From NCBI GenBank assembly GCA_001462225.1, contig LIUH01000148.1:15209-79208 (forward strand): a stretch of 64,000 nt of DNA, given 5' to 3'. How positions within the stretch are numbered: the stretch's first letter is position 1; each line of letters opens with the position of its first letter. Positions 4,562 through 33,131 of this stretch are shown here, in pieces. Position numbers and translations under genes: made by a program. The notes beneath the pieces were generated by a model. It searched no databases. It was given only the letters and a program-made list of their open reading frames with translations, and had not been told where the DNA came from. The stretch is from Fibrobacteria bacterium GUT31. GTDB taxonomy: Bacteria; Fibrobacterota; Fibrobacteria; Fibrobacterales; Fibrobacteraceae.

Positions 4562-4611
4562 TTGAACTCCTAGGAGATGGGGGTAATGTGGCAATATAGA
4601 AATAATAACAT

Positions 4612-4731
4612 AAACGCTGATTTATTCGCTTGGGGAGTGGCTAGTAGGGAGTGGGGAGTGGAAAAAACATGAATTTAAGCGTTTTTCTACTCCCTACTCC
4701 CCATTCCCTACTCCCTAAAATCAGTTAATCA
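4612..4731 (+). repeat. ~120-nt palindromic intergenic element, copy 1 (REP/MITE-like)
   Basis: Near-identical to 12328-12446 in the same orientation. It contains a long imperfect inverted repeat (GGGGAGTGGCTAGTAGGGAGTGGGGAGTGG ... CTACTCCCTACTCCCCATTCCCTACTCCC). It lies between divergent -10-type motifs. Confidence 0.85.
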
Positions 4732-4785
4732 TTACTTACTAAACCAACGTTTACTATATTATTCCAATGTTCATTGAGAGAATTT

Positions 4786-5668: not shown

Positions 5669-6073
5669 ATGAATAACATGTCCTTGATAAGAAGCAAAGA
5701 TACTTCCATAGAAGTTATCTTGCGCAAGGCTCTTTGGAGAGCGGGGTTTCGCTATAGGAAGAATTACAAAAAGTTGCCCGGCAAGCCGGACATAGCTATA
5801 ACGAAATATAAAATCGCCATTTTTTGCGATGGCGAATTTTGGCACGGCAAAAACTGGGATGAGGATAGGGGGAGAATAAAAAGCAATCGCTCGTACTGGC
5901 TTCCAAAAATTGACAGGAACATACGGCGAGATTTTGAAACGGATAGAGATTTAAAACTTATGGGCTGGGAAGTTCTGCGTTTTTGGGGCAAAGATATAGA
6001 AAAAACCTTGCAGAGCTGCATTGAGCAGGTCAAGGAAGCGGTTTTTTACAAGGAAATTGGGGTGGAGCCGTGA
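5669..6073 (+). CDS. vsr: Very short patch repair endonuclease (Vsr-like)
   Basis: NMSLIRSKDTSIE, PGKPDIAITKYKIAIFCDGEFWHGKNW and GWEVLRFWGKDI match the Vsr layout. The canonical Cys/His zinc-ligand positions appear substituted. Confidence 0.75.
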   Translation: MNNMSLIRSKDTSIEVILRKALWRAGFRYRKNYKKLPGKPDIAITKYKIAIFCDGEFWHGKNWDEDRGRIKSNRSYWLPKIDRNIRRDFETDRDLKLMGWEVLRFWGKDIEKTLQSCIEQVKEAVFYKEIGVEP

Positions 6074-6112: not shown

Positions 6113-6208
6113 ATGCTTAAGTTCATAGATTTGTTTTGCGGGATTGGCGGTTTTAGGCTCGCTCTTGAAGAAAGAGGGCTGGAAACTCATAACGAAGGGA
6201 AAATTTAG
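6113..6208 (+). pseudogene. 5' stump of a DNA (cytosine-5) methyltransferase gene (31 codons, then stop)
   Basis: It translates to MLKFIDLFCGIGGFRLALEERGLETHNEGKI*. DLFCGIGGF is C5-MTase motif I (FxGxGG). A -10-type motif (6086-6091) and a GGAG SD lie upstream. No further MTase motifs occur in any frame downstream. Confidence 0.7.
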
Positions 6209-6212
6209 CATA

Positions 6213-6956
6213 ATGGATTTGACTAAAACAGATAAAACCACATTAGCCGGATTATATATTGCTAAATTCGATAAACAAGCGTTGGAAGCTCTTGGTTTTT
6301 CTGGTATGTGGCAAGCATTCAATGTTATTGGATATTCTCTTGGATCAAGTCCAGCATCAATTAAGAATTATCGTGATGAATTTGATAGGCTATTCCCTAA
6401 TCCACGTAAAGGATGGCAACGCGAATTAAAAACACGCTCAAAGAAAATTTTTGATAATTTTAATTATCTTGATTTTGTACCATTTACCGATTTGATGAAA
6501 AGTTTTCTTATTCCAAATTATGAAGAAGAAAAATCAGTTGCTGCTCTTATAAATTCAGATAACAACGAAAGTGTTGCCAAACGGTTAATAACTGGAAAAG
6601 CGGCGGAAGAATACTTTAAGATTACTTATCCTTCAATCGTTGAATTTAAAAATTATGATTTGAAAGATACTACTAATTTAGCTTGTGGTTTTGATTTCAA
6701 GTTATTTTTAGATACAGATTTCTACTGTGTTGAAGTCAAAGGATTAAATGCAAATAAAGGTAACATTATGTTTACTGAAAAAGAATTTTTTGTTGCTAGT
6801 AAACTACAGAGGCAATATTGCTTATTTGTTGTAAAAAATTTTGTAGAAAAACCGTATCATCAAATTTTCTTCGACCCGCTTAATAGCGATCTTTCATTTC
6901 AAAAAAATGAAATAATAGTAACACAGATTAATTATTCAGCGTTAATTAAAGTATAA
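6213..6956 (+). CDS. DUF3883-type PD-(D/E)XK nuclease-like protein (restriction-endonuclease-like)
   Basis: The C-terminal segment GKAAEEYFKITYPSIVEFKNYDLKDTTNLACGFDFKLFLDTDFYCVEVKGLNANKGNIMFTEKEFFVASKLQRQYCLFVVKNF has the D...EVK nuclease core and the DUF3883 layout. The gene is visibly more AT-rich than vsr. I take ATG 6213 as the start. Confidence 0.6.
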   Translation: MDLTKTDKTTLAGLYIAKFDKQALEALGFSGMWQAFNVIGYSLGSSPASIKNYRDEFDRLFPNPRKGWQRELKTRSKKIFDNFNYLDFVPFTDLMKSFLIPNYEEEKSVAALINSDNNESVAKRLITGKAAEEYFKITYPSIVEFKNYDLKDTTNLACGFDFKLFLDTDFYCVEVKGLNANKGNIMFTEKEFFVASKLQRQYCLFVVKNFVEKPYHQIFFDPLNSDLSFQKNEIIVTQINYSALIKV

Positions 6957-10022: not shown

Positions 10023-11477
10023 CTATATCAATTCATATGTCTTATAAAAAATTCTCTCGTTTACAATATAACAATCATTCAAATCGGTTTCATTGGCGGT
10101 TAAAAAATCACCGGGTTTGCCGGAGAAATATTTTTCGGTGTCCCAATAGGTGAATACTTTTGTGAGTTTTTCAATTTGCTTGGCTTTTATTATTTTTTGG
10201 TCTTTAGGAAAACATATTTTAGCGAAACGCGAAATGCCCTGTTTTCTTCCGGTAAGCCTATTTATAACAGTTGGCGGATATTCAAAAACTTGCCGGTATT
10301 CGTCTTCCATGGCAATATAATTTTTTTCAAATTTTTCGTGCAAAATGGGATACACCTCACCTTCTATGCCTATCATAAAGTAAATATTTTCCTTGGCAAT
10401 CAAATCCAAATCACCCTCCATAGTGCGAACTGTGATTTTTGTTCCGTCTTGAAATAGGTCTTCGCATTTTGCAAAACCAACCGGTATTTGAAGTTTTTTA
10501 TAGCGTTTCATTGAAGCAAAATCAATGGGAGTTTGCCCTGCGTAAATTTTATCAAAAGCTACTAAATATTCCTTTAATCTGGAAATTAAATATTCTTCCG
10601 AATTTTTCAAAAAACCGCCGGCTTTTTCCAAATTCCCGCCGCCGCTGCCAAAACCTTCGCACAAAAACGCCGCCAATTCATTTGCCATGTATTCTCGGCT
10701 GCAACTGCGAACGGAAAGTTTTAAACCATTGCCTATATTTGAGAATACAATACAAGCATCAAGGGATTCAACCTGCATTGCAATATCACTGGAAAAGCCG
10801 AGAATATTCGGGTCACATGGTTCCGCTTTGAACAAGGCTATATTTTCTACAACTTCAAATATTTTTAAAGCTTCGGAAACTATGGAAAGTTCCGGCATGG
10901 TCAGGTTTGCATTTCTCAATTTTTTTATCAAAGTTTTGTCAAAGTAAACTTCCGATAAATCCCTGTCCAAAGGATGCCGCAATTCCGCGAGTCCGTTTGT
11001 ATCGGTATAAAGCCCGTAATACAAGGCCGTGCTTATTTTTTCATCTTTCAAAAAATCCGCCGAATCTTTTTCCTTTAACAACATGGAATGAACAAGAGTT
11101 GTGCAACTGCCAAGTGCCGGATTGATTTCGCAAAATTCATTTTCGGTTATTTCGCTTATATGATGATCTATAACTGCAAATTTTTTGCAAGGGAATTTCT
11201 GCACGTTCCCTGCGCCGTATTGGCAATCAATTGTTATGAGCAAATCCACATCGGGAATTTCTGAAACCAATTCTACTTCTATGCCAAGAGCTTCAATAAA
11301 TATCGCTAAACTCGGCTTGGTTATTTTTATTTTGCCGCCATAAATTATTTTTGCTTTGCAATTATGCTTCTCAAAATACTTTTGCAAAACATAAGCACAA
11401 GAAACGGTATCCGCATCGGGAATATTGTGCATTTGCAAAACTATGTTTTTATACGCAGTAAGTTCGGATAGTTTCAT
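10023..11477 (-). CDS. DHH/DHHA1 family phosphoesterase with an extra ~170-aa C-terminal domain
   Basis: DHH motifs I-IV are present (IPDADTV, LITIDC, AVIDHH, GLYTDTNGL). The DHHA1 glycine motif is GSGGGNLEKAGG, with Asn in place of the usual His. The start overlaps the upstream TIR gene stop (ATGA). Confidence 0.8.
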   Translation of the reverse strand: MKLSELTAYKNIVLQMHNIPDADTVSCAYVLQKYFEKHNCKAKIIYGGKIKITKPSLAIFIEALGIEVELVSEIPDVDLLITIDCQYGAGNVQKFPCKKFAVIDHHISEITENEFCEINPALGSCTTLVHSMLLKEKDSADFLKDEKISTALYYGLYTDTNGLAELRHPLDRDLSEVYFDKTLIKKLRNANLTMPELSIVSEALKIFEVVENIALFKAEPCDPNILGFSSDIAMQVESLDACIVFSNIGNGLKLSVRSCSREYMANELAAFLCEGFGSGGGNLEKAGGFLKNSEEYLISRLKEYLVAFDKIYAGQTPIDFASMKRYKKLQIPVGFAKCEDLFQDGTKITVRTMEGDLDLIAKENIYFMIGIEGEVYPILHEKFEKNYIAMEDEYRQVFEYPPTVINRLTGRKQGISRFAKICFPKDQKIIKAKQIEKLTKVFTYWDTEKYFSGKPGDFLTANETDLNDCYIVNERIFYKTYELI

Positions 11478-12310
11478 TTTTTGCTCCTTTTTGTTGTTGT
11501 CGGCGTTTTTTTTGCTGCCGGTAGTTTCACCGCATTAACAGTGCCCTGTTTTTTTTTCAAAGAATCCAAATACAAAGCCATGGAATCCATTGCATATTCA
11601 AGTTTTTCTTTTATATCTCTTATCGAATCCGCTTTACGCATCATTTCAACTTCTATTGTGATTTTTAACGAATCTGTTATACGCACAAGCCCAATTTCCC
11701 TTTCAATTCTTATGGAATCGGCTTTTTGCGCCGCCACTTTCCACTCTTTTATCTCCAGGTTCTTTTGTTGAAAAATCATAAATAAAAAGTAAGTCAAACA
11801 AACTATAAATGCCAGAATAAGCGTTGCGATAAACGATGTTATTTTCTTTTTATGCCTGATTTTCCAATGCGGCTTTGAACGCAAAAAAGTCTGTTTGAGT
11901 TTTTCATAAGAAGTTTCAAAGAGTCTAGGATTAATTTCTATGCCGTTCTTTCTGTTTATGTCCTTAATATCAAGCGGCAATTTTTTGGGATAGGCAAAAT
12001 CATCCAGCAGGAGCGGAATTATATTTTTATTCGCCTGAATAGCACAGACTAATTCACGGCGCACCCAATCGTCTTTGCGGTCGTAATCCGTTTCGGAAAA
12101 ACAATCAAAAATACCGGGGCTTAATATGATTAAAAAATCCTTGCATTTCTTAACCCTTTTTTCCAGTTCATTGTCAAAGTTTCCGTTTTCCAAAGTATCT
12201 ATATCAAAAGAAACGGAATAGCCGTCCATCCTTAATCTATCATAAATAAGTTTAGCGACGTCAAAACCGCCTTTGCGTCTGTATGAAATAAAAATATTGA
12301 AATTGGACAT
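11474..12310 (-). CDS. TIR-domain protein with one TM helix and a C-terminal coiled-coil/Lys-rich tail
   Basis: FISYRRKGGFDVAKLIYDRL and DDWVRRELVCAIQ are TIR_2-type motifs. The TM helix is ITSFIATLILAFIVCLTYFLFMIF, preceded by KIRHKKK. A -10-type motif lies 9 nt upstream of the ATG. Confidence 0.8.
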   Translation of the reverse strand: MSNFNIFISYRRKGGFDVAKLIYDRLRMDGYSVSFDIDTLENGNFDNELEKRVKKCKDFLIILSPGIFDCFSETDYDRKDDWVRRELVCAIQANKNIIPLLLDDFAYPKKLPLDIKDINRKNGIEINPRLFETSYEKLKQTFLRSKPHWKIRHKKKITSFIATLILAFIVCLTYFLFMIFQQKNLEIKEWKVAAQKADSIRIEREIGLVRITDSLKITIEVEMMRKADSIRDIKEKLEYAMDSMALYLDSLKKKQGTVNAVKLPAAKKTPTTTKRSKK

Positions 12311-12327
12311 TCTAAGAGTAATATAGT

Positions 12328-12446
12328 AAACGCAGATTTATTCGCTTGGGGAGTGGCTAGTAGGGAGTGGGGAGTGGAAAAAACATGAATTTAAGCGTTT
12401 TTCTACTCCCTACTCCCCATTCCCTACTCCCTAAACCAGTTAATCA
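12328..12446 (+). repeat. ~120-nt palindromic intergenic element, copy 2
   Basis: Near-identical to 4612-4731 in direct orientation. It lies between the leftward (TIR) and rightward (pheS) -10-type motifs. Confidence 0.85.
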
Positions 12447-12447
12447 G

Positions 12448-12460
12448 CGTTTACTATATT
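12448..12460 (+). promoter_or_regulatory. -10-type promoter motif CGTTTACTATATT, 6 nt upstream of the pheS ATG
   Basis: The motif recurs upstream of many genes in this window. No SD fits in the 6-nt gap. Confidence 0.55.
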
Positions 12461-12466
12461 CTTCCT

Positions 12467-13489
12467 ATGCAATCTCAAATTTCAGAGCTTAAAACACAGT
12501 TTCAGAGCGAACTTTCGCTGGCTGATTTAAATGAAGAAGCTTCCGTTGAAAATTTACGCCTGAAATATTTGGGCAAAAAGGGCTTGGTTACAGACTTGTT
12601 AAAAGGAATGGGAGCCCTTAGCGCAGAAGAAAGGCCTGTATTTGGAAAACAGGTGAACGAATTAAAGACGGAAGTCTCGGAAGCCATAGAACAGGCTAAG
12701 GAAAAAGCGAGCGTTTTTGCGATGGGTAAAAAATTATCTGCAGGAAAACTTGACATTTCCTTGCCGGGTGAGGGCTACAAACACGGCAGTACGCACCCGC
12801 TTTACGATATTCGCGAAGAAATTATAGATTTTTTCGCAAACATGGGTTTTCATGTGGATTTGGGTCGCGATGTAGAAACGGACTGGTATAATTTTGAGGC
12901 ATTAAACTTCCCCAAAGATCACCCAAGCCGCGATATGCAAGATACATTTTATCTTTCGCAAAACGCAGTGCTTCGCACACATACCAGCGGTACGCAAATT
13001 CACTATATGGAAACCCACAAACCGCCGATAAAAATGATAGCTCCCGGTCATGTATTCCGTGTGGACGCTGATGCCACCCATGCCCCAATGTTCCAGCAGT
13101 GCGAAGGCTTGGTTGTGGATGAAAACATATCCTTTGCGCAATTAAAGGGAATGCTCGCCCTGTTCGCCCAAAAGCTATTCGGAGAAAATGTAAAAACCAG
13201 ATTTCGCCCCAGTTTTTTCCCCTTCACCGAACCCAGCGCAGAATTGGACGTGAGTTGCGTTTTTTGCTCCGGTACGGGTTGCCGCAGGTGCAAAGGCTCC
13301 GGTTGGATGGAAATAGGCGGTTGCGGTTCGGTTGCCCCAGCCGTATTTGATAATGTTGGGATAGATTCGGAAAAATACACCGGTTTTGCTTTTGGTTTTG
13401 GACTAGACCGCATAGCCATGCTCAGACATCACATACCGGAAATATCGCTGTTAACTTCAAACGACCAAAGGTTTTTGGAACAATTTTGA
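12467..13489 (+). CDS. pheS: Phenylalanine--tRNA ligase alpha subunit
   Basis: 340 aa. Motifs FPKDHPSRDMQDTFY and FRPSFFPFTEPSAE, with typical class II aaRS PheS length and layout. Confidence 0.95.
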   Translation: MQSQISELKTQFQSELSLADLNEEASVENLRLKYLGKKGLVTDLLKGMGALSAEERPVFGKQVNELKTEVSEAIEQAKEKASVFAMGKKLSAGKLDISLPGEGYKHGSTHPLYDIREEIIDFFANMGFHVDLGRDVETDWYNFEALNFPKDHPSRDMQDTFYLSQNAVLRTHTSGTQIHYMETHKPPIKMIAPGHVFRVDADATHAPMFQQCEGLVVDENISFAQLKGMLALFAQKLFGENVKTRFRPSFFPFTEPSAELDVSCVFCSGTGCRRCKGSGWMEIGGCGSVAPAVFDNVGIDSEKYTGFAFGFGLDRIAMLRHHIPEISLLTSNDQRFLEQF

Positions 13490-14169: not shown

Positions 14170-15537
14170 AAAAACTTTGCCCAGCGGCGGCGAATATTTG
14201 ATAAAAGGAATGTCGTTAAACAAAAACAAACTGAGCATTCCGCACACAACGCCGATTAAAACGGAAAACGAGCGCAAATAAGGAGCAAAAAAGGAGAGCA
14301 GAAAAAGCGCAAGCAAAGGGCCTGTGAAAAGCCCGGTAAAAAATAGGGCGTTTTTCAAAAGGGAGCCAACTTGAGACGCCGCAACAAAGGCTGCAAATGT
14401 TCCGCACACACCCCAAAGCACAATCCACATTTTTGTTCTTAACATGGATTCTTGCCCCGCAGTTTTGCACAAAATATCTTTCTCGGTCGTGTTTCCCAAA
14501 GCGTGAATCGCACTGGAAATACTGCTCATAGCCGCCGCAAAAATTGCCGCTACCAAAAGTCCCGTTAAACCGCGCGGCAAACCGTTCACAATAAAATACG
14601 GGAACACATCATTGACGCCGATATTTTCAGGAAGCGAACTTGCATTTTTGACCTTGTAATAAACAAACAACGCCGCTCCGAGCCAATAGAACAAAAGCGA
14701 AACAACAAGCCCTAAAACCATGGAAAGCACACTTGATCTGTTTGCCGCCTTAACATCTTTGCAACTCAGATATCTTTGCACAAACTGCTGGTCGCAACCT
14801 CTGATTGCAATTTCCAAAACCGCATACACAATACCGGCAGAGAGCAAGGTTCTCGCATTTGACGGGTCAAGTGCGCCGCTAAACCAATTGCTTTTCCCGC
14901 TCTCATCGGCAAGAGCAACCAATTCCCCAAACCCGCCGATGCCGTTTACCAAAACGAACAAGGCGAAAATTCCGCCGCCAAAGAAAACCAAAAATTGCAT
15001 TACATCGGTCCAAACAACAGCTTTAAAGCCTCCATACCAAGTGTATAAAATTGCGGCAACAGAAGAAATCAAAATAGCCGTCCATATGGGAATTTGCAAA
15101 ATCGGAGCTAGAACCAAAGACGGAGCAAATAACAAAATACCTGTTCTCAAAACCAAGTGCATAGCGTAAAAAACCGCAGCGACTCTGCGCACGGAGCGGG
15201 AAAAACTTTTTTCCAAAATTTCGTAAGCACTTTGCGCTCCGCTCTTTCTAATGCGAGGAATAAATATCCACCCCACAACCAAAACACTTAAAAAACTCCC
15301 TGCATTGGTCATTATCAAAGTCATATCCACATCAAAAACATCTGCCGGAACACCTAAAAGAGTTGTTGCGCTAACGGAAGTCGCTATTAAACTTATGCCA
15401 ACGGGAATCCACGGCATTGAGCCGCCTCCGAGCATATAATCCTTAAAAGAACGATTACTCCTTGCGGCGTACAAGCCTATAAAAATAGAGAGGCACCAAT
15501 ATACCGCAAGCACAGACCAGTCTATGGCACCGAACAT
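14068..15537 (-). CDS. Sodium:solute symporter (SSF) family transporter
   Basis: 489-aa ORF with about 13 hydrophobic helices and the typical SSF length and N-terminal layout. Confidence 0.75.
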   Translation of the reverse strand: MFGAIDWSVLAVYWCLSIFIGLYAARSNRSFKDYMLGGGSMPWIPVGISLIATSVSATTLLGVPADVFDVDMTLIMTNAGSFLSVLVVGWIFIPRIRKSGAQSAYEILEKSFSRSVRRVAAVFYAMHLVLRTGILLFAPSLVLAPILQIPIWTAILISSVAAILYTWYGGFKAVVWTDVMQFLVFFGGGIFALFVLVNGIGGFGELVALADESGKSNWFSGALDPSNARTLLSAGIVYAVLEIAIRGCDQQFVQRYLSCKDVKAANRSSVLSMVLGLVVSLLFYWLGAALFVYYKVKNASSLPENIGVNDVFPYFIVNGLPRGLTGLLVAAIFAAAMSSISSAIHALGNTTEKDILCKTAGQESMLRTKMWIVLWGVCGTFAAFVAASQVGSLLKNALFFTGLFTGPLLALFLLSFFAPYLRSFSVLIGVVCGMLSLFLFNDIPFIKYSPPLGKVFSWPWNPLISCTVSVWLALCVDFVVPRKVVNKVA

Positions 15538-17204
15538 TACTCGTTTGCCTCTGACATTTCCTGAAATTTATTTGCGATACTCACAAGGAATAATGTTTTT
15601 CCGCTCTGTCCGAGTTTATTCCCTATCTCTTTGATTTTATCTTTATTTAGCCATATAGAATGGCTTTTTATGGACAAAGTGTCTCCGTCAAGCAAGTTTT
15701 TCGTATTCGTTATAATTTGAGTTGCTATTATTTCAAAAACATTTTCCTTTAAGTCGCCTTTTACGGATAATACAAATTCACCGCTTCCAAGCATAGCTAA
15801 ATGCTGCCCGTTCCAAGCCTTTTTCACTCTTTTTAGTATTGCCAAAAATTTTTCAAAAACCGCAGCCTTGCCCTCTTTGTTTGAAGGGATGCATTTCAAG
15901 AATAAAATGCCAATGCTATCACTGCTGTTTTCCAGACTCTCTATTTCGTGCTCGTAGTAGTTCAAAATCTCGCCCAAACCGTTCGAATCAACTTCTGCCA
16001 AAGCATTTTCTTTTTCCTGTTTAGAAATATCTTTACTTTCAATATCGGAAAGTTTAAGCGAAGCACAAGCAATTATGCAAGTTAACACAATCTCATCCGT
16101 TATGGAAACCGCTTTGTCGTTTTTGCTTTCAAGCACAATAACCAGCGGATACGAATTATTTTGCATGGGAGGCCCAACGGCAAAAAGAGAACGAAGCTCC
16201 AAATTCTCAGGTTCATTTTCATAGAATCTGCGTTGATACGGATCCGTTGAAATTCTTTTTTCGTTTATCACAGAAATTTTTCCGGCTAAAAGTTCATAGA
16301 GCAGGCATTTCACATGAATACTAAAGGATACTCCTTTGAAAATTTCTTTTTGCTCGCCTACCGCTTCCACAATTTGCCATTTATCTTTATCCTGCTCATG
16401 CGGCATGATGAGCATTAACCTATTAAATCGAAAATTGTCCTGTAAAATTTGAGATAAATTGGCAATTAGGTTTCCCTTTGAAGAAGAATGAAGTAAGTCC
16501 GATATGTCTTTCAGCATACCGTTGAACAGACTGTTCTCCTTATCCAATTTGAAATTCCCGTCCATCGTTCTAAGCACCTCTTCCATCAGAGTTGCAAGTT
16601 CCAGCAATTCCATGCGTATATCATCGTCAAAGGCATTTTGATCTACGCTATCTATGGTTATGTAACCGCGCAACTTTCCACCGCCGGAAATAGCCGCACC
16701 TGCCATGGAGCTTGCCATTAATTCTTCTGTGCTATAAATGTCTATGGGGATTTCATCCATTCCGTTCCAGCTGAACTCTTTTTTTGAAAAGTACCTATTA
16801 TTCTGTGGTATGAGCAAATTCTCGCTTATACGATAAGGAGAGTTGGGAAGTCTCAGGGTAAAGCTCTCCCCGTTGAATGCCCAGTAACAAACAGAGAGAA
16901 TGTTGAGATTTTCTTTTTCCAGGTAGCTGCGGAAAAGAGCGAGCATTTTTTTAATAAAAGCATCTTTATTCACAGTTCCTTTTTCATAACATGTCTTTTC
17001 CTGTTCAAATCTCTTTACGGCGGAACCTTCTTGGTCAACATTAGCAACAAATTCAACAGGAATGCCCATAGTGTCGGTTACCCTTTGCGGGTTGCCTTTA
17101 GGCTCTTTGTGCAAAATTCTGTAATTATAAATCCATGCAAAAATGCAACCTAGAAAGACTGCGAATCCTAAGCAAAAAATAAAAGCAGTAATGGATATAT
17201 GCAC
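15537..17204 (-). CDS. Membrane-anchored signalling protein with GAF-like regions and a degenerate GGDEF-like C-terminal domain
   Basis: I moved the start to GTG 17204 (VHISITAFIFCLGFAVFLGCIF TM helix), 7 nt downstream of a TACATT motif. The C-terminal HLAMLGSGEFVLSV resembles RxGGDEF with GGDEF changed to GSGEF. Confidence 0.45.
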   Translation of the reverse strand: MHISITAFIFCLGFAVFLGCIFAWIYNYRILHKEPKGNPQRVTDTMGIPVEFVANVDQEGSAVKRFEQEKTCYEKGTVNKDAFIKKMLALFRSYLEKENLNILSVCYWAFNGESFTLRLPNSPYRISENLLIPQNNRYFSKKEFSWNGMDEIPIDIYSTEELMASSMAGAAISGGGKLRGYITIDSVDQNAFDDDIRMELLELATLMEEVLRTMDGNFKLDKENSLFNGMLKDISDLLHSSSKGNLIANLSQILQDNFRFNRLMLIMPHEQDKDKWQIVEAVGEQKEIFKGVSFSIHVKCLLYELLAGKISVINEKRISTDPYQRRFYENEPENLELRSLFAVGPPMQNNSYPLVIVLESKNDKAVSITDEIVLTCIIACASLKLSDIESKDISKQEKENALAEVDSNGLGEILNYYEHEIESLENSSDSIGILFLKCIPSNKEGKAAVFEKFLAILKRVKKAWNGQHLAMLGSGEFVLSVKGDLKENVFEIIATQIITNTKNLLDGDTLSIKSHSIWLNKDKIKEIGNKLGQSGKTLFLVSIANKFQEMSEANE

Positions 17205-17254
17205 AAAGGAGAATGTAGAAAAATTCACTATTTCAAAATTTCTATTTTTCCGGT

Positions 17255-18631
17255 ATGTTTTATGATACGGCACAAAAAATTTTGGATTTTTGCCTTGAGG
17301 CAGGGGCAACTTTTGCAGAGATTTATGAAGAAGAAACCAGAAAATCGTATCTGTCACTGAAAGACAACGCTATAGAAGGGGCATCTGCTTCCATAATTTA
17401 CGGAATCGGAATAAGAATGCTATATGGAACGGAGGTTCTTTACGGCTTTACAAGCGACTCTTCGGAAGAAGTTCTGCTGAACATTGCAAAAAATTTATCC
17501 ATAGCGAAAAACATAAAAGGAACCCAAAAAACCGAACTTGGCAAAGAGCAGAATTACATATCCTTTTGCAAAGACAGTTTCAAAGATCCCCGCATTCTGG
17601 GTCAGTCATATAAAAAAGATTTTTTGTTTGCAGCAAATTCTGCCGCTAGAATAAGCCCGAAAATTTTGCAGTTGGAAGCCTCTATTGCGGACTCCGTGCA
17701 AAATATAAATATATGGAACAGCGAAGGTTTGCAAATTTCCGATAGCAGAGCCAGAACGAGATTTTCCGTGAACGCTACCGCAGCAGAAAATTCGGAACGC
17801 ACCTCTGCGCACGAAGCTCCCGGCGCACTAGGCGGCTTTGAATTTTTGGATAATTTGCCCGTTAATAAATTGGCAGCCTCCTGTGCGGAAAGGGCACTCA
17901 GAATGCTCTCTGCACCTTATATAAAAGGCGGGCAAATGCCGGTTGTTATGGGAAATGCTTTTGGCGGGGTAATTTTTCACGAAGCCTGCGGGCATCCTTT
18001 GGAAGCAGAAGCTGTGCGCAAGCAAGCAAGCCCATTTTGCGGAAAATTAGGCGAGCAAGTTGCGCAACCCGTGCTAACCGCCGTGGACGACGGCACTTTA
18101 AGCGGAGTTTGGGGAAGTTTGGCGATAGACGATGAAGGAACCCCAACGCAGAAAACGATTTTGATTGAGAACGGAATTTTGAAAAACTTTTTAAGCGACC
18201 GTGTGGGTTCTAAGGAACTCGGCTTGCCATTGACCGGCAGCGCACGCAGAGAATCCTATAAGTATGCTCCTGTCAGCAGAATGAGAAACACATTCATAGC
18301 TCCCGGCGATTCCACTTTGCAGCAAATGCTCGCCACTGTTGATAATGGGCTTTATGCTGCAAAAATGGCGGGCGGCTCGGTTAATCCCGCAACAGGGGAA
18401 TTTAACTTTGCGGTTGAAGAGGGCTACGAGATTAAAAAAGGTAAATTGGGCGACGCAGTTCGCGGTGCAACTCTTATAGGGCTTGGTCATGAGATTTTAC
18501 CTAAAATAAGCATGGTTGGCAACGATTTTGAGCTTGCGGCGGGAATGTGCGGAGCAAGCTCCGGCCATATTCCGGTGACTGTCGGGCAGCCATCTATAAA
18601 GGTGGATTCTATTTTGGTTGGCGGGCGTTAG
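17255..18631 (+). CDS. tldD: TldD/PmbA family metalloprotease (TldD)
   Basis: 458 aa with the TldD zinc motif HEACGHPLEAE. A TATTTT motif lies 6 nt upstream of the ATG. Confidence 0.85.
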   Translation: MFYDTAQKILDFCLEAGATFAEIYEEETRKSYLSLKDNAIEGASASIIYGIGIRMLYGTEVLYGFTSDSSEEVLLNIAKNLSIAKNIKGTQKTELGKEQNYISFCKDSFKDPRILGQSYKKDFLFAANSAARISPKILQLEASIADSVQNINIWNSEGLQISDSRARTRFSVNATAAENSERTSAHEAPGALGGFEFLDNLPVNKLAASCAERALRMLSAPYIKGGQMPVVMGNAFGGVIFHEACGHPLEAEAVRKQASPFCGKLGEQVAQPVLTAVDDGTLSGVWGSLAIDDEGTPTQKTILIENGILKNFLSDRVGSKELGLPLTGSARRESYKYAPVSRMRNTFIAPGDSTLQQMLATVDNGLYAAKMAGGSVNPATGEFNFAVEEGYEIKKGKLGDAVRGATLIGLGHEILPKISMVGNDFELAAGMCGASSGHIPVTVGQPSIKVDSILVGGR

Positions 18632-19051: not shown

Positions 19052-20569
19052 GTGGATAAAATATTGATTTACGAACTCATGCTCAAATGTGCTGTATTTG
19101 TTGTTTTGTTTTTCGGTATTTTTATTCTCTTGTCAAAAAACGAAACTATTAGGAATTTCTGTGTTAGAAATCAAAAGACCGCTTTTATATTGTTATGTAT
19201 TTTGACTTTTATTTCAATAATCGTGCGATTTGTTATGTATGCAAAAACTCGTTCGCTTTGGCTTGATGAGGCTATGCTTGCAGAAAGCCTTGTGACAAGA
19301 GATTTTTGGAACTTGCTTGCAACTCCGCTTGAAAATAATCAAACCGCACCGGCTTTTTACCTTCTTGCGGTAAAATTGATTTGTCTTATTTTCGGTTATG
19401 GCGAGGGGGCATTGCGCTCTTTTTCTTTTCTTGCATTTATCGGACTTCTTGTAGCTCAGGCTATTTTGCTAAAAAAACATTTCTGTTTAAACAATATCCG
19501 GACTGCGTTTAGTGTATTTTGCGTTGCAACTATACCGGCGTATATGTACTATTCAAATGAGCTTAAACCCTATATGAGCGATGTATTTTTTGTCGTTCTC
19601 GTTTTGCTTCTATATTACTTATATAGTTGCGGAAAAATAAAACTGCCGATTATCACAATAATTTACAGTATTATTTTGCTTTTTTCAAATCCCGCTTCTT
19701 TCTTTATAGGAGCTATGTATATTGTTGAATTCGTATCTGCCTTTTGCAAAAAAAGAAAGAGAAAAATGTTGCTTGTTGTAATTTTTGGCATGGCAATACT
19801 TGCTGTTTTTGCGGTGTATTATTATTTATGGCTTATGCCGGTTGCGAATAACGATTATATGATAAATTATTGGAAAAACGCTGCTGAAATCGGAAGAACT
19901 AACATTATGTATATATTCACCCCGAGCCGCTTTTCTTCTAACAGCATGATTTGTTGGCTATTCGTACCTTTTTCATTGCTTGGATTATTTGATTCTTGCA
20001 GAAAAAAAGATTTTGTATCTCTTGTGGTTTTGGTTGCCATTATTTTAGCTGCGTTTGCTTCTGTAATCGGAAAATATCCTTTATCAGCCCGGTTGTGGTT
20101 GTTTCTTCCAGCTCTTGTTTTTATTTATGCACCGTTTGGCATGATTTTTATTGCAAAAAAATCACTGCTTATTGCATTTTTATTAGCCTTTACAATAAAT
20201 CAATCCGCTTTCGTGGATTTTTGCGAACAAAGATTATATTATCCTGGTCAAGAAACAAATCCTTTGATAGAATATGTGCAAAAAAATATAAAAGAAGGGG
20301 AATTTTTTTATGTTGATTATCATTCGAATTTTGTGATGCGTTATAAAAACAGCTATGGTAGGAATGTATTGGAAGATAACATTATTTGGGGCAACGAGTT
20401 GGATGAGGAAACTCTAGGTAACGAAGTTCAGAGGATTAAAGGAAATGCTTATTTGTTATTAAATCGCCATGTGAAGTTGGAGAACAGGCTTGATATTTTT
20501 CAAAGATATGGAAAAGTTAGCAAAATTATGGAAGTTTATGAAACTCCGCTTTATTACTTTGAAAGGTAA
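19052..20569 (+). CDS. Polytopic membrane glycosyltransferase, GT39/ArnT-like
   Basis: It has more than 10 TM helices. RSLWLDEAMLAESL resembles the DE loop motif of ArnT/PMT-type enzymes. The start is GTG 19052 (7 nt after TATATT) or ATG 19079. Confidence 0.55.
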   Translation: MDKILIYELMLKCAVFVVLFFGIFILLSKNETIRNFCVRNQKTAFILLCILTFISIIVRFVMYAKTRSLWLDEAMLAESLVTRDFWNLLATPLENNQTAPAFYLLAVKLICLIFGYGEGALRSFSFLAFIGLLVAQAILLKKHFCLNNIRTAFSVFCVATIPAYMYYSNELKPYMSDVFFVVLVLLLYYLYSCGKIKLPIITIIYSIILLFSNPASFFIGAMYIVEFVSAFCKKRKRKMLLVVIFGMAILAVFAVYYYLWLMPVANNDYMINYWKNAAEIGRTNIMYIFTPSRFSSNSMICWLFVPFSLLGLFDSCRKKDFVSLVVLVAIILAAFASVIGKYPLSARLWLFLPALVFIYAPFGMIFIAKKSLLIAFLLAFTINQSAFVDFCEQRLYYPGQETNPLIEYVQKNIKEGEFFYVDYHSNFVMRYKNSYGRNVLEDNIIWGNELDEETLGNEVQRIKGNAYLLLNRHVKLENRLDIFQRYGKVSKIMEVYETPLYYFER

Positions 20570-20589
20570 CTTTTTTATTTGTATATTGT

Positions 20590-21732
20590 TTGCCAATGCC
20601 GGAGTCTATCAATTTTAACGAAGCTCCCTTTTTAGGGAGCGAGTTTGAGCATATAAAGGATGCCATAGATTCCAAACATATAAGCGGAGGCGGCAAATAC
20701 ACAAAATTGTGCAATGGCATTTTGGAAAATATAACCGGAACAAAAAAAGCTCTATTTACGCATTCCTGCACAGCAGCTCTTGAAATGAGTGCCTTGCTAT
20801 TAAACATAGAACCGGGAGATGAGGTAATTTTACCAAGCTATACATTCTCTTCCACAGCGAGTGCATTCGCTTTGCGTGGAGCAAAATTGGTATTTATAGA
20901 TATTAAGAATGACACTTTGAACCTAGATGAAAATTTGCTCGGACAAGCCATCACCAAAAAAACAAAGGCTATAATCCCCGTGCATTACGCCGGAGTTTCC
21001 TGCGAAATGGATGGGATTTTGGATATTGCAAACAAGTATAAAATAGCGGTTATTGAAGATGCGGCACAAGCGGTTGGCAGTTATTATAGGGAAAAAGCGT
21101 GTGGCAGCATCGGAGATTTTGGGTGCTATTCTTTTCACGAAACAAAAAACATATCATGCGGAGAGGGTGGCGCATTGCTCATAAACAATGAACGCTGCAT
21201 TGAGCAAGCGGAAATAATTTTGGAAAAAGGGACTGACCGCAGCAAGTTTTTCAGAGGGCAGGTGGATAAATACACTTGGGTTGATTTAGGCAGTTCCTAT
21301 TTGCCAAGCGATATGCTTGCAGCTTATCTGTATCCGCAGTTGCAAAATGTTGAGCATATAAATAAACAGCGAACTGAGTTATGGAATAACTATCATAAAA
21401 GTTTTGAGGAATTTGAGAATAGAGAAATTGTTAAAAGACCTTTTGTTCCGGCTCATTGCAGGCATAATGCACATCTGTATTATTTGCGTTTTAATTCGTT
21501 GGAAATTCGCTCTAAATTTATAGAGTTTATGAATTCTAAAGGCATTATGTGCATATTTCACTATGTACCTTTGCATTCCTCCATAGCGGGAAAAAAATAT
21601 GGTAAAACGGCAGGTTCTATGAAAAATACAGACCTTGTAAGCGATACATTGGTGAGGCTTCCGCTTTTTTACGGAATGGATAGCCAAAATAAAATTATAG
21701 ATTGCACGGGGAGTTTTTTATCAAGTTTATGA
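20590..21732 (+). CDS. wecE: dTDP-4-amino-4,6-dideoxy-sugar aminotransferase (WecE/DegT family)
   Basis: THSCTAALEMSALLLNIEPGDEVILPSYTFSSTASAFALRGAKLVFIDI closely parallels E. coli WecE as I remember it. Confidence 0.8.
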   Translation: MPMPESINFNEAPFLGSEFEHIKDAIDSKHISGGGKYTKLCNGILENITGTKKALFTHSCTAALEMSALLLNIEPGDEVILPSYTFSSTASAFALRGAKLVFIDIKNDTLNLDENLLGQAITKKTKAIIPVHYAGVSCEMDGILDIANKYKIAVIEDAAQAVGSYYREKACGSIGDFGCYSFHETKNISCGEGGALLINNERCIEQAEIILEKGTDRSKFFRGQVDKYTWVDLGSSYLPSDMLAAYLYPQLQNVEHINKQRTELWNNYHKSFEEFENREIVKRPFVPAHCRHNAHLYYLRFNSLEIRSKFIEFMNSKGIMCIFHYVPLHSSIAGKKYGKTAGSMKNTDLVSDTLVRLPLFYGMDSQNKIIDCTGSFLSSL

Positions 21733-23108
21733 GTTCCATTAAAACTATTCTTAAAAGTGTGTACAGAAGATTATTCTGTGGGAAGCTCTATTATTTTGAA
21801 CAACGTTTTGCAAAAGAACAAAAAAACGATATGCGTTACTTAGATAAAGAAATTGAAAAATATGCCTTTGAAATTACACCACCGAGCTTTGAGGAAAACA
21901 TTGTAAGCAATAGGATTGCATTTTTGGCAACGGAATTATACGATTTCGGCGGGCATACGGAAGTTATTAAGAATATTATAGAAAGCCTTCCTAAGGAATA
22001 CGAGTGCAAATTATTTTTGGCAAAAAAATACAGAACTTTGCGTTGTGCTCCCGTAAAAATGATAGAAATTTTGCAATATTGCAAAATGGACGGAGTTAAT
22101 TTTGGCTATGAGAACGATAAAAGGGCTTTATTGAAAATGTTTGGCAAAATAACGGAATTTGCACCTAAAGCTATTTTTGTTTTTATGCATAATAACGATG
22201 TTTTTAGCACAGCACTTTTGGCATTGCTAAAAAAATGGACTAAAATCAAAATTTTTTATTCGGATATATGCTCTCATCAATTCGGCATAGGAATGAGCTT
22301 TGCGGATTTGATTTTGGAGGGAATGCCCTCAACTGTTTTTATCACGCAAAAATACAGGGGGTTCAAAAATACATCCATGAATTGGATTTGCCATTTGCCC
22401 CGTGAAAAATTACCCGTAATAACGGAAAGCGAAGTTTTGGAAATGCGCAAAAAAATATTGCCTCCGGATGCTCTATGCACTGTTAGCGGCGCGGCAGCTT
22501 ACAAATTCTTTGAAAATGAGGATTCTGCGTATTTAAAAATGATTGAAAGGTTATTGAATAAAAATGAGAATTTATACCATATACTCATTACCGAATTTAC
22601 TCCAAGGCATAAAAATATTTTTGATTCAATTTTTGAAAATTCCGCCGCAAAAAACAGAATAAAACTTATGAATTTCACGCCGAATTTCAGATTGCTTTTT
22701 AAGTGTGCAGATGTATTTATAGACAGTTTCCCGGTTAGCAGCGCATTTACAATGATAGATTTAATGAGTTTAAAAGTTCCTTTTGTCGCAAAAAAAAACA
22801 GAGATAATATAGCCTTTTCCTTTCACGAATACTTAACTCCGGATTATCCTTATATGTTTGACAATGCGCAGGATATGGAAACCGGAATAGAGAATTTGTT
22901 GTTTAACAAAGGACGCAGAGAGCAGATTGCAAAAGAGAATTTTGAGCATTTTTTGATTTTTTTTGAGGGAAAAAAATATGCAAGCCGTTTAATAGACTTA
23001 GCAAATTGCGATGATTTGAGTGAGGTATATGACAAGGAAATAGATGAAACGCAATACAAGGATTTTAAGAAAATGGAATTGCTGCCTTTTCCATATGGGT
23101 TGAGTTGA
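21729..23108 (+). CDS. Putative glycosyltransferase (GT41/SPY-like catalytic domain), function unknown
   Basis: ATGA overlap with wecE. FGGHTEVIKNIIESL and DVFIDSFPVSSAFTMIDLMSLKVPFV resemble GT41 C-terminal motifs. This assignment is weak. Confidence 0.4.
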   Translation: MSSIKTILKSVYRRLFCGKLYYFEQRFAKEQKNDMRYLDKEIEKYAFEITPPSFEENIVSNRIAFLATELYDFGGHTEVIKNIIESLPKEYECKLFLAKKYRTLRCAPVKMIEILQYCKMDGVNFGYENDKRALLKMFGKITEFAPKAIFVFMHNNDVFSTALLALLKKWTKIKIFYSDICSHQFGIGMSFADLILEGMPSTVFITQKYRGFKNTSMNWICHLPREKLPVITESEVLEMRKKILPPDALCTVSGAAAYKFFENEDSAYLKMIERLLNKNENLYHILITEFTPRHKNIFDSIFENSAAKNRIKLMNFTPNFRLLFKCADVFIDSFPVSSAFTMIDLMSLKVPFVAKKNRDNIAFSFHEYLTPDYPYMFDNAQDMETGIENLLFNKGRREQIAKENFEHFLIFFEGKKYASRLIDLANCDDLSEVYDKEIDETQYKDFKKMELLPFPYGLS

Positions 23109-23109
23109 T

Positions 23110-23805
23110 ATGAAAAAGGTTGCCGTTTTGCAATCAAATTACATTCCTTGGAAAGGGTATTTTGATATAATTTCGCAAGTTGATGAATTCATATTTTATG
23201 ATGATGTTCAATATACAAATGGAGATTGGAGAAATAGGAATAAAATCAAAACGGATAATGGTCTTTTATGGTTATCTGTTCCTGTTGGAAAATCGGAAAG
23301 TCGTTTGATATGCGATGTGAATATTACAAGCCATGATTGGCAAAAAAAACATTGGCAAAGTATTATGCAATTTTACAAAAAAGCGCCTTTCTTTGAGGAA
23401 TATAAAAGTTTTTTTGAAGATTTTTATTTGAATAAAGTTCATAATAATTTATCGGATATGAATATCGGTTTGATAAAAAAAATATGTTCGGAAATTTTGA
23501 ATATAAAAACGAATTTCAAAGATTCAAGAGAATTTAATTTGCAAGGAAAAAAGGAAAACAGGTTGCTGGAATTATTGGAAAAAACAGAGGCATCTCTTTG
23601 TTTAGCCGGACCTGCAGCAAAAAGTTATATTGATGAACAGCATTTTGCTGACAAAAATATAGAACTCAAATGGATGGATTATTCCGGCTATCCTGAATAC
23701 AAGCAGTTATTTGGAAAATTTGAACATGCGGTTTCCATTTTGGATTTAATTTTCAATGTCGGGAGCGATTCGCCTTTTTATGTTTATGGGTGGAGAGCCA
23801 CTTGA
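23110..23805 (+). CDS. WbqC family protein
   Basis: VAVLQSNYIPWKGYFDII and WRNRNKIKT are typical WbqC N-terminal motifs. Confidence 0.8.
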   Translation: MKKVAVLQSNYIPWKGYFDIISQVDEFIFYDDVQYTNGDWRNRNKIKTDNGLLWLSVPVGKSESRLICDVNITSHDWQKKHWQSIMQFYKKAPFFEEYKSFFEDFYLNKVHNNLSDMNIGLIKKICSEILNIKTNFKDSREFNLQGKKENRLLELLEKTEASLCLAGPAAKSYIDEQHFADKNIELKWMDYSGYPEYKQLFGKFEHAVSILDLIFNVGSDSPFYVYGWRAT

Positions 23806-24754
23806 AAAAACTTTTTTTATAAAGAAATTTTTCAAATTCTTTGCCGCTCATCGGATAATCGGCAAAAATTTTTTTCCGTTTTTTTAGCATCTTCGGCAGA
23901 TTACGCAAAATATCTATATACGCTTTTAACCTCATAAAAAAATAACCCCGGAACGTACATAATACCATAGATAGAACTTGGAACAGAAAAATCTGCGGAC
24001 TATACTTTAACAAAGTTATCAAAGGATAATGCTTTATTTTCAAATAAAACTTATTTCGTTCCGCAAAATACATTCTTTGAGCGGAATGTTGCACTATGGT
24101 AGCACAGCCCTTATGCCTTATTTTAGCTTTAGGCAGCATCCAAATTTCCACTCCCATTCTTTTTGCCATAAGCGATAAATCTACGTCCTCATAAATCAGA
24201 AAAAAATCTTCGTCAAAACCGCCGATTTTATTAAACAATTCTTTATTGAATACCGCACCGCCACCGCAAGCAGACATGATTTCTCTTTTATCTGCAAATA
24301 TGGCATCATCTGCTTCCAAATCTTCGTATTTGTAACCCAAACACCAGGGGTACAAACAATCTCCGCCGGAATCTACTTTTGTAGGTTCGTCAAAATTGAC
24401 CATTAAAGGGGCAAATACAAGATGATTTGTTTTTCTTTCCGATATGCCTTTTGCAATCTCTGCAAGGCAGTTATTTTCCAGCATTGTATCGTTATTTAAA
24501 AAGAAGACCCATTCACCGAGAGCATAAGGCAAGGCACAATTGTTTCCACCGGCAAATCCTAAATTACTTTTATTTTCGACCGTTTTTACTTTCGGATAAT
24601 TTTCTCTTACCCAAAGAACAGAAGAATCTGTAGAATTGTTATCCACTAAAATAACTTCAAAATCCGTAAAGTTCTGGTTAAATATGGAATCCAAACATTC
24701 TCGCAGATGATGTTTTCCGTTATAGTTCAAGATAATTATGCTTATCAGCGGCAT
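23753..24754 (-). CDS. Glycosyltransferase family 2
   Basis: ISIIILNYNGKHHLRECLDSI and ILVDNNSTDSS (GT-A DxD-type N-terminus). Confidence 0.85.
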   Translation of the reverse strand: MPLISIIILNYNGKHHLRECLDSIFNQNFTDFEVILVDNNSTDSSVLWVRENYPKVKTVENKSNLGFAGGNNCALPYALGEWVFFLNNDTMLENNCLAEIAKGISERKTNHLVFAPLMVNFDEPTKVDSGGDCLYPWCLGYKYEDLEADDAIFADKREIMSACGGGAVFNKELFNKIGGFDEDFFLIYEDVDLSLMAKRMGVEIWMLPKAKIRHKGCATIVQHSAQRMYFAERNKFYLKIKHYPLITLLKYSPQIFLFQVLSMVLCTFRGYFFMRLKAYIDILRNLPKMLKKRKKIFADYPMSGKEFEKFLYKKSFFKWLSTHKHKKANRSRH

Positions 24755-25518: not shown

Positions 25519-25523
25519 TTTCC

Positions 25524-27314: not shown

Positions 27315-27419
27315 AACTTGTTCAAGTTCCTAAATGCAAAAAGACATGGCAAATATAGTAAATTTCACTGTTGTCCCACAAAAAAACATGAAAATCGTAT
27401 CGCACCGCATATTTCACGG

Positions 27420-28748: not shown

Positions 28749-28822
28749 AAAAACTATACTAAATGCAAAAAGTCAAGGTAAATATAGTAAATTTAATGCA
28801 AAAAGTCAGGGTGATTTTTTGT

Positions 28823-30394: not shown

Positions 30395-30522
30395 TGGGTA
30401 AATATAGAAATTCAAAGTTTTTTTTCTATATTTAATTCCTAAATGTCGTTTTATACGGAAAAGTTATACAAGAGAGCCTCTAGGCCATCTCTGCAAGGCT
30501 TTGGTAAAAGCAAGGAGGTGGA

Positions 30523-31617: not shown

Positions 31618-31623
31618 ATTAAA

Positions 31624-33120: not shown

Positions 33121-33131
33121 TATTCTTATAT

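Follow-up and report, generated by a model that had tools for sequence, protein, structure and literature searches.

Two translationally coupled genes in a 64,000-nucleotide stretch of DNA from Fibrobacteria bacterium GUT31 (contig LIUH01000148.1; this whole stretch is called the window below) point to a TIR-based pathway, for nucleotide signalling or for defence, that has not yet been described. One gene encodes a TIR protein with a predicted transmembrane helix and a charged tail, and the other encodes a protein (DHH-C) that joins a DHH phosphoesterase domain, a DHHA1-like domain and a new C-terminal domain, the C domain. The coupling of the two genes, their domain content, the conservation of catalytic residues, the linkage of the two families across phyla, their fusion in a single chain and the swapping of the output enzyme were all computed here, while the direction of information flow, from the TIR through the DHHA1-like and C domains (the C module) to the output enzyme, is what we infer. 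An earlier note, made from the letters of this DNA, had proposed such a pair, and both open reading frames were found where it had placed them. The two genes and their parts are listed here, with the basis for each assignment in parentheses.

11474..12310, minus strand: gene for the TIR, transmembrane and tail protein, 278 amino acids (open reading frame; Pfam TIR_2, E 2.5e-13; weak ThsB-like matches in PADLOC and NCBIfam)
11963..12295, minus strand: TIR domain, residues 6-116 (Pfam TIR_2 envelope; aligned with 54 partner TIR domains)
12053..12055, minus strand: codon of Glu86, the catalytic-position Glu of W-x-x-x-E (WVRRE) (computed position; invariant among TIR partners)
11774..11830, minus strand: predicted single transmembrane helix, residues 161-179, preceded by KIRHKKK (Kyte-Doolittle window score 2.69)
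11477..11773, minus strand: C-terminal tail, residues 180-278, charged, 17% Lys, predicted to be extracytoplasmic (composition; topology by the positive-inside rule)
11484..11489, minus strand: AAGGAG Shine-Dalgarno sequence for the DHH-C gene, within the 3′ end of the TIR gene (sequence read)
11474..11477, minus strand: ATGA stop/start overlap, translational coupling (sequence; same overlap at other loci)
10023..11477, minus strand: gene for the DHH-DHHA1-C protein, 484 amino acids (open reading frame; 2972 homologues; AlphaFold2 mean predicted local distance difference test score, pLDDT, 85.5)
11013..11447, minus strand: DHH catalytic domain, residues 11-155, motifs I-IV intact (Pfam DHH, E 7.8e-10; invariant residues; Foldseek)
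10566..10910, minus strand: DHHA1-like domain, residues ~190-304 (Pfam DHHA1 sub-threshold, E 0.21; PDB fold matches)
10614-10649, minus strand: glycine motif GSGGGNLEKAGG, residues 277-288, from G277 (motif position)
10026..10565, minus strand: all-beta C-terminal domain, residues 305-484, a TIR-linked module (AlphaFold2 pLDDT 91.4; no PDB match; no Pfam match; 515 clusters)

Comparison across genomes supports the two genes as a real functional pair. We scanned one genome per GTDB species (185,579 genomes) with a pattern search that gives a lower bound and obtained relatives in 431 genomes; the locus counts given below rest on the best 80 species-level loci from these, and TIR genes were located with an iterated TIR hidden Markov model (HMM) built from the window TIR protein. 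The DHH-C family comprises 2972 proteins at E<=0.001 among 8000 candidates scored, with full-length identities of 47-50% between Fibrimonadales, Clostridia, Synergistaceae, Treponema and Adiutrix. We found a TIR gene beside the DHH-C gene in at least 53 of the 80 loci. It is adjacent and co-directional in 45 and lies within the locus in 6 more according to the HMM; Pfam places a TIR protein of the CAP12/Pycsar type directly upstream of DHH-C in T. primitia; and one partner gene that is cut by a contig end, yet whose linker and transmembrane helix are visible, is counted among the 53. The pair loci span seven or more phyla, with members in Fibrobacterota, Bacillota, Synergistota, Campylobacterota, Pseudomonadota, Acidobacteriota, Desulfobacterota and one spirochaete. 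The TIR gene is upstream of DHH-C in Fibrimonadales, termite-gut Clostridia, Synergistaceae, Helicobacteraceae, Zoogloeaceae, Acidobacteriota and one deltaproteobacterium and downstream of it in Lachnospiraceae, and the 4-nucleotide overlap of the window genes recurs in loci of Fibrimonadales, Helicobacteraceae and Zoogloeaceae. The partner TIR domains fall into at least three subfamilies with mutual identities of 19-25%; the DHH-C proteins of the same groups are 42-53% identical. Within one group spread over four or five phyla, TIR identity is 65% and DHH identity 60%, which indicates that the pair has been transferred as a unit. The functional pairing proposed in the earlier note is thus borne out by adjacency, by the joint travel of the two genes and by a protein, described below, in which they are fused. 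The pair is frequent rather than obligate in cis.

The TIR partner proteins show features that support an enzymatic protein tethered to the membrane with its N terminus inside. In the window protein, the N-terminal domain had already been recognized as being of the TIR_2 type, and it scores 51 bits against a gathering cutoff of 28. The ThsB1 match in PADLOC is weak (E 6.2e-8, 30 bits), the NCBIfam model for ThcB4 of Thoeris type III scores 29 bits where its cutoff is 220, and Pfam shows TIR only, with no CNBD, SAVED or STING domain. Glu86 lies in the context DDWVRRELV and, going by motif alignment, presumably corresponds to the Glu that is catalytic in the TIR NADases of plants and bacteria. 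The Glu at this position is invariant in 54 of 54 partner proteins aligned over their TIR domains, and we infer a catalytic role for it. One strongly hydrophobic helix follows the TIR domain by ~50-70 residues in 50 of the 54 partners. Because these proteins have no signal peptide and basic residues precede the helix (positive-inside rule), the TIR domain is predicted to be cytoplasmic and the variable C-terminal region to be outside. This region is a charged tail of 100-200 residues in Fibrimonadales (99 residues, coiled-coil-like, in the window protein), consists of PQQ/WD40-type beta-propellers in Clostridia and Lachnospiraceae, where the proteins reach 830-1060 amino acids, and has no domain assignment in the remaining partners. 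Two tandem paralogs with TIR domain and transmembrane helix precede one DHH-C gene in Helicobacteraceae. The catalytic-position Glu, the helix with its KIRHKKK and the Lys-rich tail of the window protein all agree with their earlier description, and the same is true of the ATGA overlap: on the coding strand the junction reads AAAAAATGAAACT, the TGA stop overlapping the ATG of the next gene, with the internal AAGGAG 6 nucleotides 5′ of that ATG.

The family of TIR proteins with a transmembrane helix is much expanded in Fibrimonadales (509 database matches). One Fibrimonadaceae contig (L093, 6934-9766) carries three tandem paralogs of 355, 271 and 315 amino acids and has no DHH-C gene within 8 kb.

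Over its 305 N-terminal residues the window DHH-C protein belongs, as judged from its predicted structure, to the DHH/DHHA1 fold class. Pfam DHH matches with 39.5 bits against a cutoff of 28.1, and motifs I-IV (D21/D23, D84, D104-H105-H106 and D159) are invariant in 22 homologues, so that the four motifs that had been read from the sequence are all intact. The DHHA1 match stays below threshold (12.5 bits against a cutoff of 25.9). Here the GGGH motif is replaced by GGGN, as the earlier note had seen, and across the family the residue after the three glycines is N, G or S and occasionally H. The protein was modelled with AlphaFold2 from a 22-sequence alignment, and residues 1-~305 of the model match solved DHH/DHHA1 phosphodiesterases (Foldseek E 1e-17 to 1e-12, identity 13-21%), namely the pApA phosphodiesterase TM1595 of T. 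maritima, mycobacterial NrnA/Rv2837c, the catalytic domain of GdpP, DhhP of Borrelia, and NrnA of S. aureus and Bacillus. Matches to 5o7f, 4ls9, 5xt3, 9r7o and 8iu7 have E values of 1e-17 to 1e-14 and template modelling scores (TM-scores) of 0.6-0.7 on the target. The DHHA1-like fold is kept, according to Foldseek, although the GGGH motif is absent. No hydrophobic helix was found in the DHH-C protein, PADLOC returned zero matches for it, and it reaches no NCBIfam equivalog, the best score being 19 bits against cutoffs of 283-397. Judged by these sequence comparisons, it is not an orthologue of NrnA, GdpP, RecJ or family II pyrophosphatase; according to the earlier note, it would have spoken against the idea if the protein were the only and conserved NrnA orthologue. 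Members of the family (P0003-P0120) carry the label 'phosphoglycolate phosphatase' at the Joint Genome Institute (JGI). Domain content gives no support for this label, which is probably a propagated mis-annotation.

The C-terminal ~180 residues, which the earlier note could not assign, form a new domain. Modelled alone, they give a confident all-beta fold with no significant PDB match (best Foldseek E 0.056, TM-scores <0.2). Pfam has no match even at E<=10, a sequence-profile search of the PDB gave noise only (E 0.01 to the pRN1 primase), and BLAST found no internal repeats. An assignment to Pfam AGS_C was set aside, as a cyclase fusion matched Guanylate_cyc only. In the viral predicted-structure library BFVD, Foldseek found five uncharacterised proteins that share the fold (A0A345MMK3, A0A7D0KZ20, A0A2I2L347, A0A6J5T1L1 and A0A6J5R0H2; E 3e-8 to 4e-4) from Caudovirales and Orpheovirus, one of them a protein of 163 amino acids with a TM-score of 0.71, as well as a weak partial likeness to 'PGDYG' proteins. 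Going by the predicted structures, these viral relatives could be decoys or sponges for the same ligand.

We also searched 1.84 billion representative proteins with a profile of the C domain and obtained 515 clusters, mostly DHH-C proteins of ~500 amino acids. Other architectures are a REC-like domain with a class III cyclase, the DHHA1-like domain and C (~750-850 amino acids), a stand-alone DHHA1-like domain with C (~320-340 amino acids), a catalytically degenerate DHH-DHHA1-C with a GGDEF domain (P0245), and DHH-C with further C-terminal parts. Some of the short forms of ~330 amino acids are split or frameshifted DHH genes (L085) and others are genuine DHHA1-like and C proteins in cyclase operons. 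A TIR_2 gene is present at all six of the cyclase- or GGDEF-linked loci that were examined. For the cyclase fusions P0338 and P0344 it is the gene immediately upstream; the TIR upstream of P0366 was assigned from the homology of a partial gene; P0372 and P0359 belong to an operon of GAF-GGDEF, TIR, cyclase and DHHA1-C genes on human-gut contigs of 100-150 kb; and the divergent neighbour of the GGDEF fusion is a TIR protein of 932 amino acids with a transmembrane helix. In P0348 (L098, 367-2436) a single chain of 689 amino acids runs from TIR_2 into DHH-DHHA1-C. This fusion has no transmembrane helix, retains the Glu (FVRLEIE) and has a degenerate DHHA1 glycine motif. In the cyclase-linked forms the glycine motif is KGD or DGD instead of GGG and the invariant residues of the C domain are kept, indicating that the TIR tracks with the C domain and the DHHA1-like scaffold rather than with DHH catalysis. 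Read from their domain content, the enzymes attached to the C module are interchangeable nucleotide-messenger enzymes. The suggestion in the earlier note that the DHH enzyme is controlled through its extra domain fits this tracking of the C domain with the TIR across output enzymes. The cyclases of the sister operons match the PycC models of PADLOC (E 3.5e-25). On human-gut and other Firmicutes contigs (L086-L092) there is a conserved operon of AP_endonuc_2, GAF-GGDEF, a soluble TIR that ends in a Zn-ribbon, a REC-like class III cyclase and a DHHA1-like and C protein; at L089 the cyclase-type operon adjoins rpsF-ssb-rpsR-gdpP-rplI-dnaB.

The reading that we put first, tentatively and with somewhat less than even confidence, is that the TIR generates a signal, the DHHA1-like and C domains receive it and the DHH esterase, cyclase or GGDEF domain is the output. 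Each gene would then supply one half of a module for TIR-based nucleotide signalling. The TIR protein would be type-II-like, with a cytoplasmic N-terminal TIR, one transmembrane helix and a variable extracytoplasmic region, and an envelope or extracellular cue would cluster it. Clustering would activate the TIR site (Glu86), which may convert NAD+ to an ADP-ribose-derived nucleotide. The cytosolic partner would read this nucleotide through its DHHA1-like and C domains, the C domain being the favoured sensor: it is conserved across all architectures and the glycine motif is degenerate in the cyclase types, so that the function constantly linked with the TIR falls to the C domain. Once bound, the nucleotide would regulate the DHH phosphoesterase joined to these domains, an enzyme most similar in fold to phosphodiesterases of pApA, c-di-AMP and nanoRNA; in the sister systems the same receiver would regulate either a class III nucleotide cyclase or one of the GGDEF type. 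Several observations weigh against this proposal. The known sensor domains for NAD products (SLOG, Macro and STALD) are undetectable in the pair by Pfam, and no characterised protein is structurally related to the C domain, whose binding of a ligand is purely conjectural. About 27 of the 80 DHH-C loci have no TIR within 6 kb, some of them being cut by contig ends, and tandem arrays of TIR genes with a transmembrane helix occur without a DHH gene. P0245, in which a full but catalytically dead DHH-DHHA1 is joined to GGDEF, would be equally explained if the DHH cleft bound the TIR product.

That last point leads to a different division of labour. Nucleotide messengers are classically degraded by DHH/DHHA1 enzymes, and GdpP, DhhP, Rv2837c and TM1595 give the best fold matches; on the pattern of GGDEF/EAL or DAC/GdpP, the pair could consist of a synthase and its dedicated phosphodiesterase: the TIR would make an NAD-derived messenger and DHH-DHHA1-C would hydrolyse or mature it, while dead or truncated forms fused to GGDEF or cyclase domains would be messenger receptors and other receptors would be encoded elsewhere. 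The change from GGGH to GGG(N/G/S) in a motif for the substrate phosphate suggests an unusual substrate, the single-chain TIR-DHH protein resembles GGDEF-EAL fusions, and the dead DHH-DHHA1-C of P0245, beside its added GGDEF, is like pseudo-enzyme receptors. Lone DHH-C genes, and TIR arrays elsewhere in the genome, would also be accounted for, and a housekeeping-like context fits a physiological messenger network. However, the cyclase forms lose the glycine motif and keep the C domain, which puts the TIR-linked function outside the DHH/DHHA1 cleft, and an operon of maker and breaker would have no output of its own; we consider this arrangement the main rival, though an unlikely one. Information could also flow in the reverse direction, as in Pycsar or CBASS, with DHH-C (or the sister cyclase or GGDEF) sensing infection and producing or releasing a nucleotide that activates the TIR as an NAD+-depleting, membrane-located effector of abortive infection. 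The effectors of Pycsar, Pucsar and CBASS include TIR proteins (10.64898/2026.08.12.744502). The sister-operon cyclases resemble PycC as described above and the partner in T. primitia is a TIR of the CAP12/Pycsar-effector type, but the TIR partners have no nucleotide-binding domain and only ~50 residues between TIR and transmembrane helix, their large and variable extracytoplasmic domains suit sensors rather than effectors, a DHH hydrolase would be an odd signal generator, and several TIR paralogs per DHH-C gene suit many sensors that feed one receiver. On balance, reverse flow appears improbable.

A physical rather than chemical link between the two proteins would be compatible with translational coupling and with the single-chain fusion. 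In such a scaffold a non-enzymatic TIR adaptor, comparable to those of animal Toll-like receptor signalling, would recruit DHH-C to the membrane through the C domain, which has no recognisable ligand-binding relative, and would thereby localise or activate a nanoRNA or c-di-AMP phosphodiesterase. The invariance of the Glu in 54 of 54 partners, across subfamilies that are 19-25% identical, argues for retained enzyme activity, and leaves the scaffold with little probability. Finally, the DHH protein might be a housekeeping NrnA or nanoRNase that came by coincidence to lie next to one of many TIR paralogs. Such paralogs are numerous in Fibrimonadales (509 matches and a tandem array), the window flanks are of housekeeping type and some DHH-C genes have no TIR neighbour. 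Yet TIR and DHH-C genes lie side by side in at least seven phyla, in both orders and with three TIR subfamilies, a TIR-DHH fusion protein exists, the family is detected in 431 of 185,579 species genomes even as a lower bound, identity to solved NrnA, GdpP and their kin is 13-21% with an extra domain besides, and a sister locus has its own canonical GdpP nearby. We give coincidence almost no credence, and we reject the housekeeping NrnA reading in view of the species counts, the fused protein and the additional domain.

With the TIR as signal generator and the C module as receiver, there remains the purpose of the pathway, for which anti-phage defence and physiological envelope signalling are about equally likely. 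ThsB-like TIRs, several sensors per receiver, transfer of the operon across phyla, presence or absence of the TIR gene and the viral structural relatives of the C domain all fit defence. Housekeeping synteny, ectodomain sensors, partners with REC, GAF, GGDEF and cyclase domains and a strongly conserved receiver fit physiology. It is possible, if doubtful, that the pathway is a physiological transmembrane one in the style of Toll-like receptors and not primarily immune, in which external sensors (beta-propellers, coiled coils) drive a cytoplasmic enzymatic TIR and an NAD-derived messenger is read by the new receiver domain. Within that non-immune reading the receiver might, with similarly limited likelihood, switch c-di-AMP/pApA-type esterases and cNMP (cyclic nucleoside monophosphate) or c-di-GMP cyclases, wiring TIR signalling into the second-messenger network of gut anaerobes.

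The genomic context was assessed with PADLOC and Pfam for ~15 window neighbours, among which no PADLOC system was found. On one side the pair is flanked by an M23 peptidase, Vsr, a NOV_C protein and a PD40 protein of 1010 amino acids, and on the other by pheS, a PNP_UDP-like protein, a sodium:solute symporter, a protein of 606 amino acids and PmbA. The Vsr very-short-patch endonuclease gene (5669-6073) and the NOV_C (DUF3883-like) gene (6144-6956) lie 3-5 kb from the pair; the NOV_C protein gives a weak match to TmtA in PADLOC, and neither a methyltransferase nor a complete defence system was seen among the neighbours scanned. The 606-amino acid open reading frame (15537-17357) has no Pfam or PADLOC match. 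In flank synteny, the 1010-amino acid neighbour is common to the closest relative (L002) only. The earlier note had placed the pair in a segment with other defence-like genes. This could not be upheld, as Vsr and NOV_C are the only such genes and stand among pheS, PD40, symporter and PmbA genes. In Lachnospiraceae, DHH-C lies in a stable block of GAF-GGDEF-EAL, IMP-cyclohydrolase-like, purH, DHH-C, class I tRNA synthetase and DUF2225 genes, and the gene for the TIR protein with transmembrane helix and propeller is present or absent between DHH-C and the tRNA synthetase. A defence island was therefore rejected, since neighbours gave Vsr and NOV_C without a system and the Lachnospiraceae context is purO-purH and tRNA synthetase. 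A tblastn search of plasmids gave no match, and IMG/VR gave two partial matches of 45 residues only. Two full-length INPHARED matches were not counted as viral, being UNVERIFIED faecal 'Bacteriophage sp.' contigs; in one of the two a TIR gene is upstream. Elsewhere in the window, G+C content is 0.32-0.37 over positions 20000-37000 and 0.43-0.46 in most of the window, and this region may be an acquired island.

The intergenic region between the TIR gene and pheS is filled by a repeat.

12313..12467, no strand assigned: intergenic palindrome separating the TIR gene from pheS, with TACTATATT boxes that face outward (inverted repeat with 70-nucleotide arms; hairpin z -9.1; second copy at ~4615-4760)

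This palindrome of ~140 nucleotides occurs twice in the window, at ~4615-4760 and ~12325-12465, each copy taking up an intergenic region between divergent genes. The two copies are 100% identical in their core, and the predicted hairpin has a free energy (dG) of -71.6. The outer ends carry CGTTTACTATATT 9-10 nucleotides before the start codons of the TIR gene, pheS and the genes at 4594/4774. A sigma-70 scan gave no more sites than shuffled sequence, and Rfam returned only sub-threshold miRNA-hairpin noise for the element. The element between the TIR gene and pheS is a probable bidirectional promoter region, and it looks like a duplicated bidirectional promoter cassette or an element similar to a miniature inverted-repeat transposable element (MITE). 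Of the promoter and repeat proposed earlier, the repeat is real and present in two copies, while the leaderless promoter is weak, with only a consensus-like TACTATATT box 9-10 nucleotides before the ATG.

What is known of TIR signalling in bacteria comes from a handful of defence systems with SLOG, Macro or related receivers. We know of no TIR/NAD-derived physiological messenger network in bacteria, and literature searches for one were empty. PADLOC 2.0, Pfam 2025 and NCBIfam 20 do not describe the pair, and full-text literature mentions TIR and DHH/DHHA1 separately only and never links them; a 2015 survey of nucleotide-centric conflict systems in Nucleic Acids Research (NAR) was outside the scope of that search. 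The statement in the earlier note that no named system has this composition thus holds for PADLOC, NCBIfam and the searchable literature. A survey of immune cNMP cyclases describes no such TIR/C module (10.64898/2026.08.12.744502). New here would be a receiver module that is 42-53% identical across phyla and has no solved structural relative, a first connection of TIR enzymes with DHH esterases and with cyclases of the class III and GGDEF types, a TIR in the form of a membrane receptor whose sensor domains are external, and a family found in at least 431 species, most of them anaerobes from the guts of termites, ruminants, mice and humans. As a defence system, the pair would add a Thoeris-like type, so far undescribed, whose effector follows a new logic; as a physiological one, it would be the first case outside immunity of a bacterial pathway with a TIR-derived second messenger. 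Either reading yields a directly testable protein pair with clear point mutants (E86A in the TIR; D104/H105/H106 in DHH).

Compared with known systems, the window protein has the two-domain fold and four DHH motifs in common with NrnA, Rv2837c/CnpB, TM1595, DhhP and GdpP, but its family differs from the NrnA/GdpP type in its 13-21% identity, GGG(N/G/S), an extra domain of 180 amino acids and the linkage to TIR. As in Pycsar, Pucsar and CBASS, a TIR gene has the gene of a nucleotide-messenger enzyme as its neighbour, and the sister cyclases resemble PycC. However, the two-gene operon of the window has no cyclase or CD-NTase, cyclases being found in sister operons only, and the partner TIRs have a transmembrane helix and ectodomain instead of CNBD, SAVED or STING; the pair is not a Pycsar or CBASS system. 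By analogy only, the TIR protein recalls animal Toll-like receptors, which likewise cross the membrane once and combine a cytoplasmic TIR with an external domain that varies, although here the TIR is N-terminal (the opposite polarity), the ectodomains are unrelated and the TIR is probably an enzyme rather than an adaptor, and no homology beyond the TIR fold is implied. The GGDEF/EAL and DAC/GdpP networks offer a further analogy in their constant receiver module with interchangeable messenger enzymes, their dead-enzyme fusions and the presence of maker and esterase in one chain, but the presumed messenger here would be TIR/NAD-derived. Overall, the pair would work most like Thoeris, but its second protein keeps it out of that class, as it differs from ThsA in lacking SLOG, Macro, SIR2 and transmembrane effector domains and in having a DHH/DHHA1 esterase and the new beta domain instead, and the window TIR is membrane-anchored with an external domain, with no PADLOC system call and no defence-island context. 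What the two have in common is a catalytic-Glu TIR paired with a protein that joins a putative signal-reading module to an enzymatic output, and several ThsB per ThsA have their counterpart in the two tandem TIRs per DHH-C in Helicobacteraceae.

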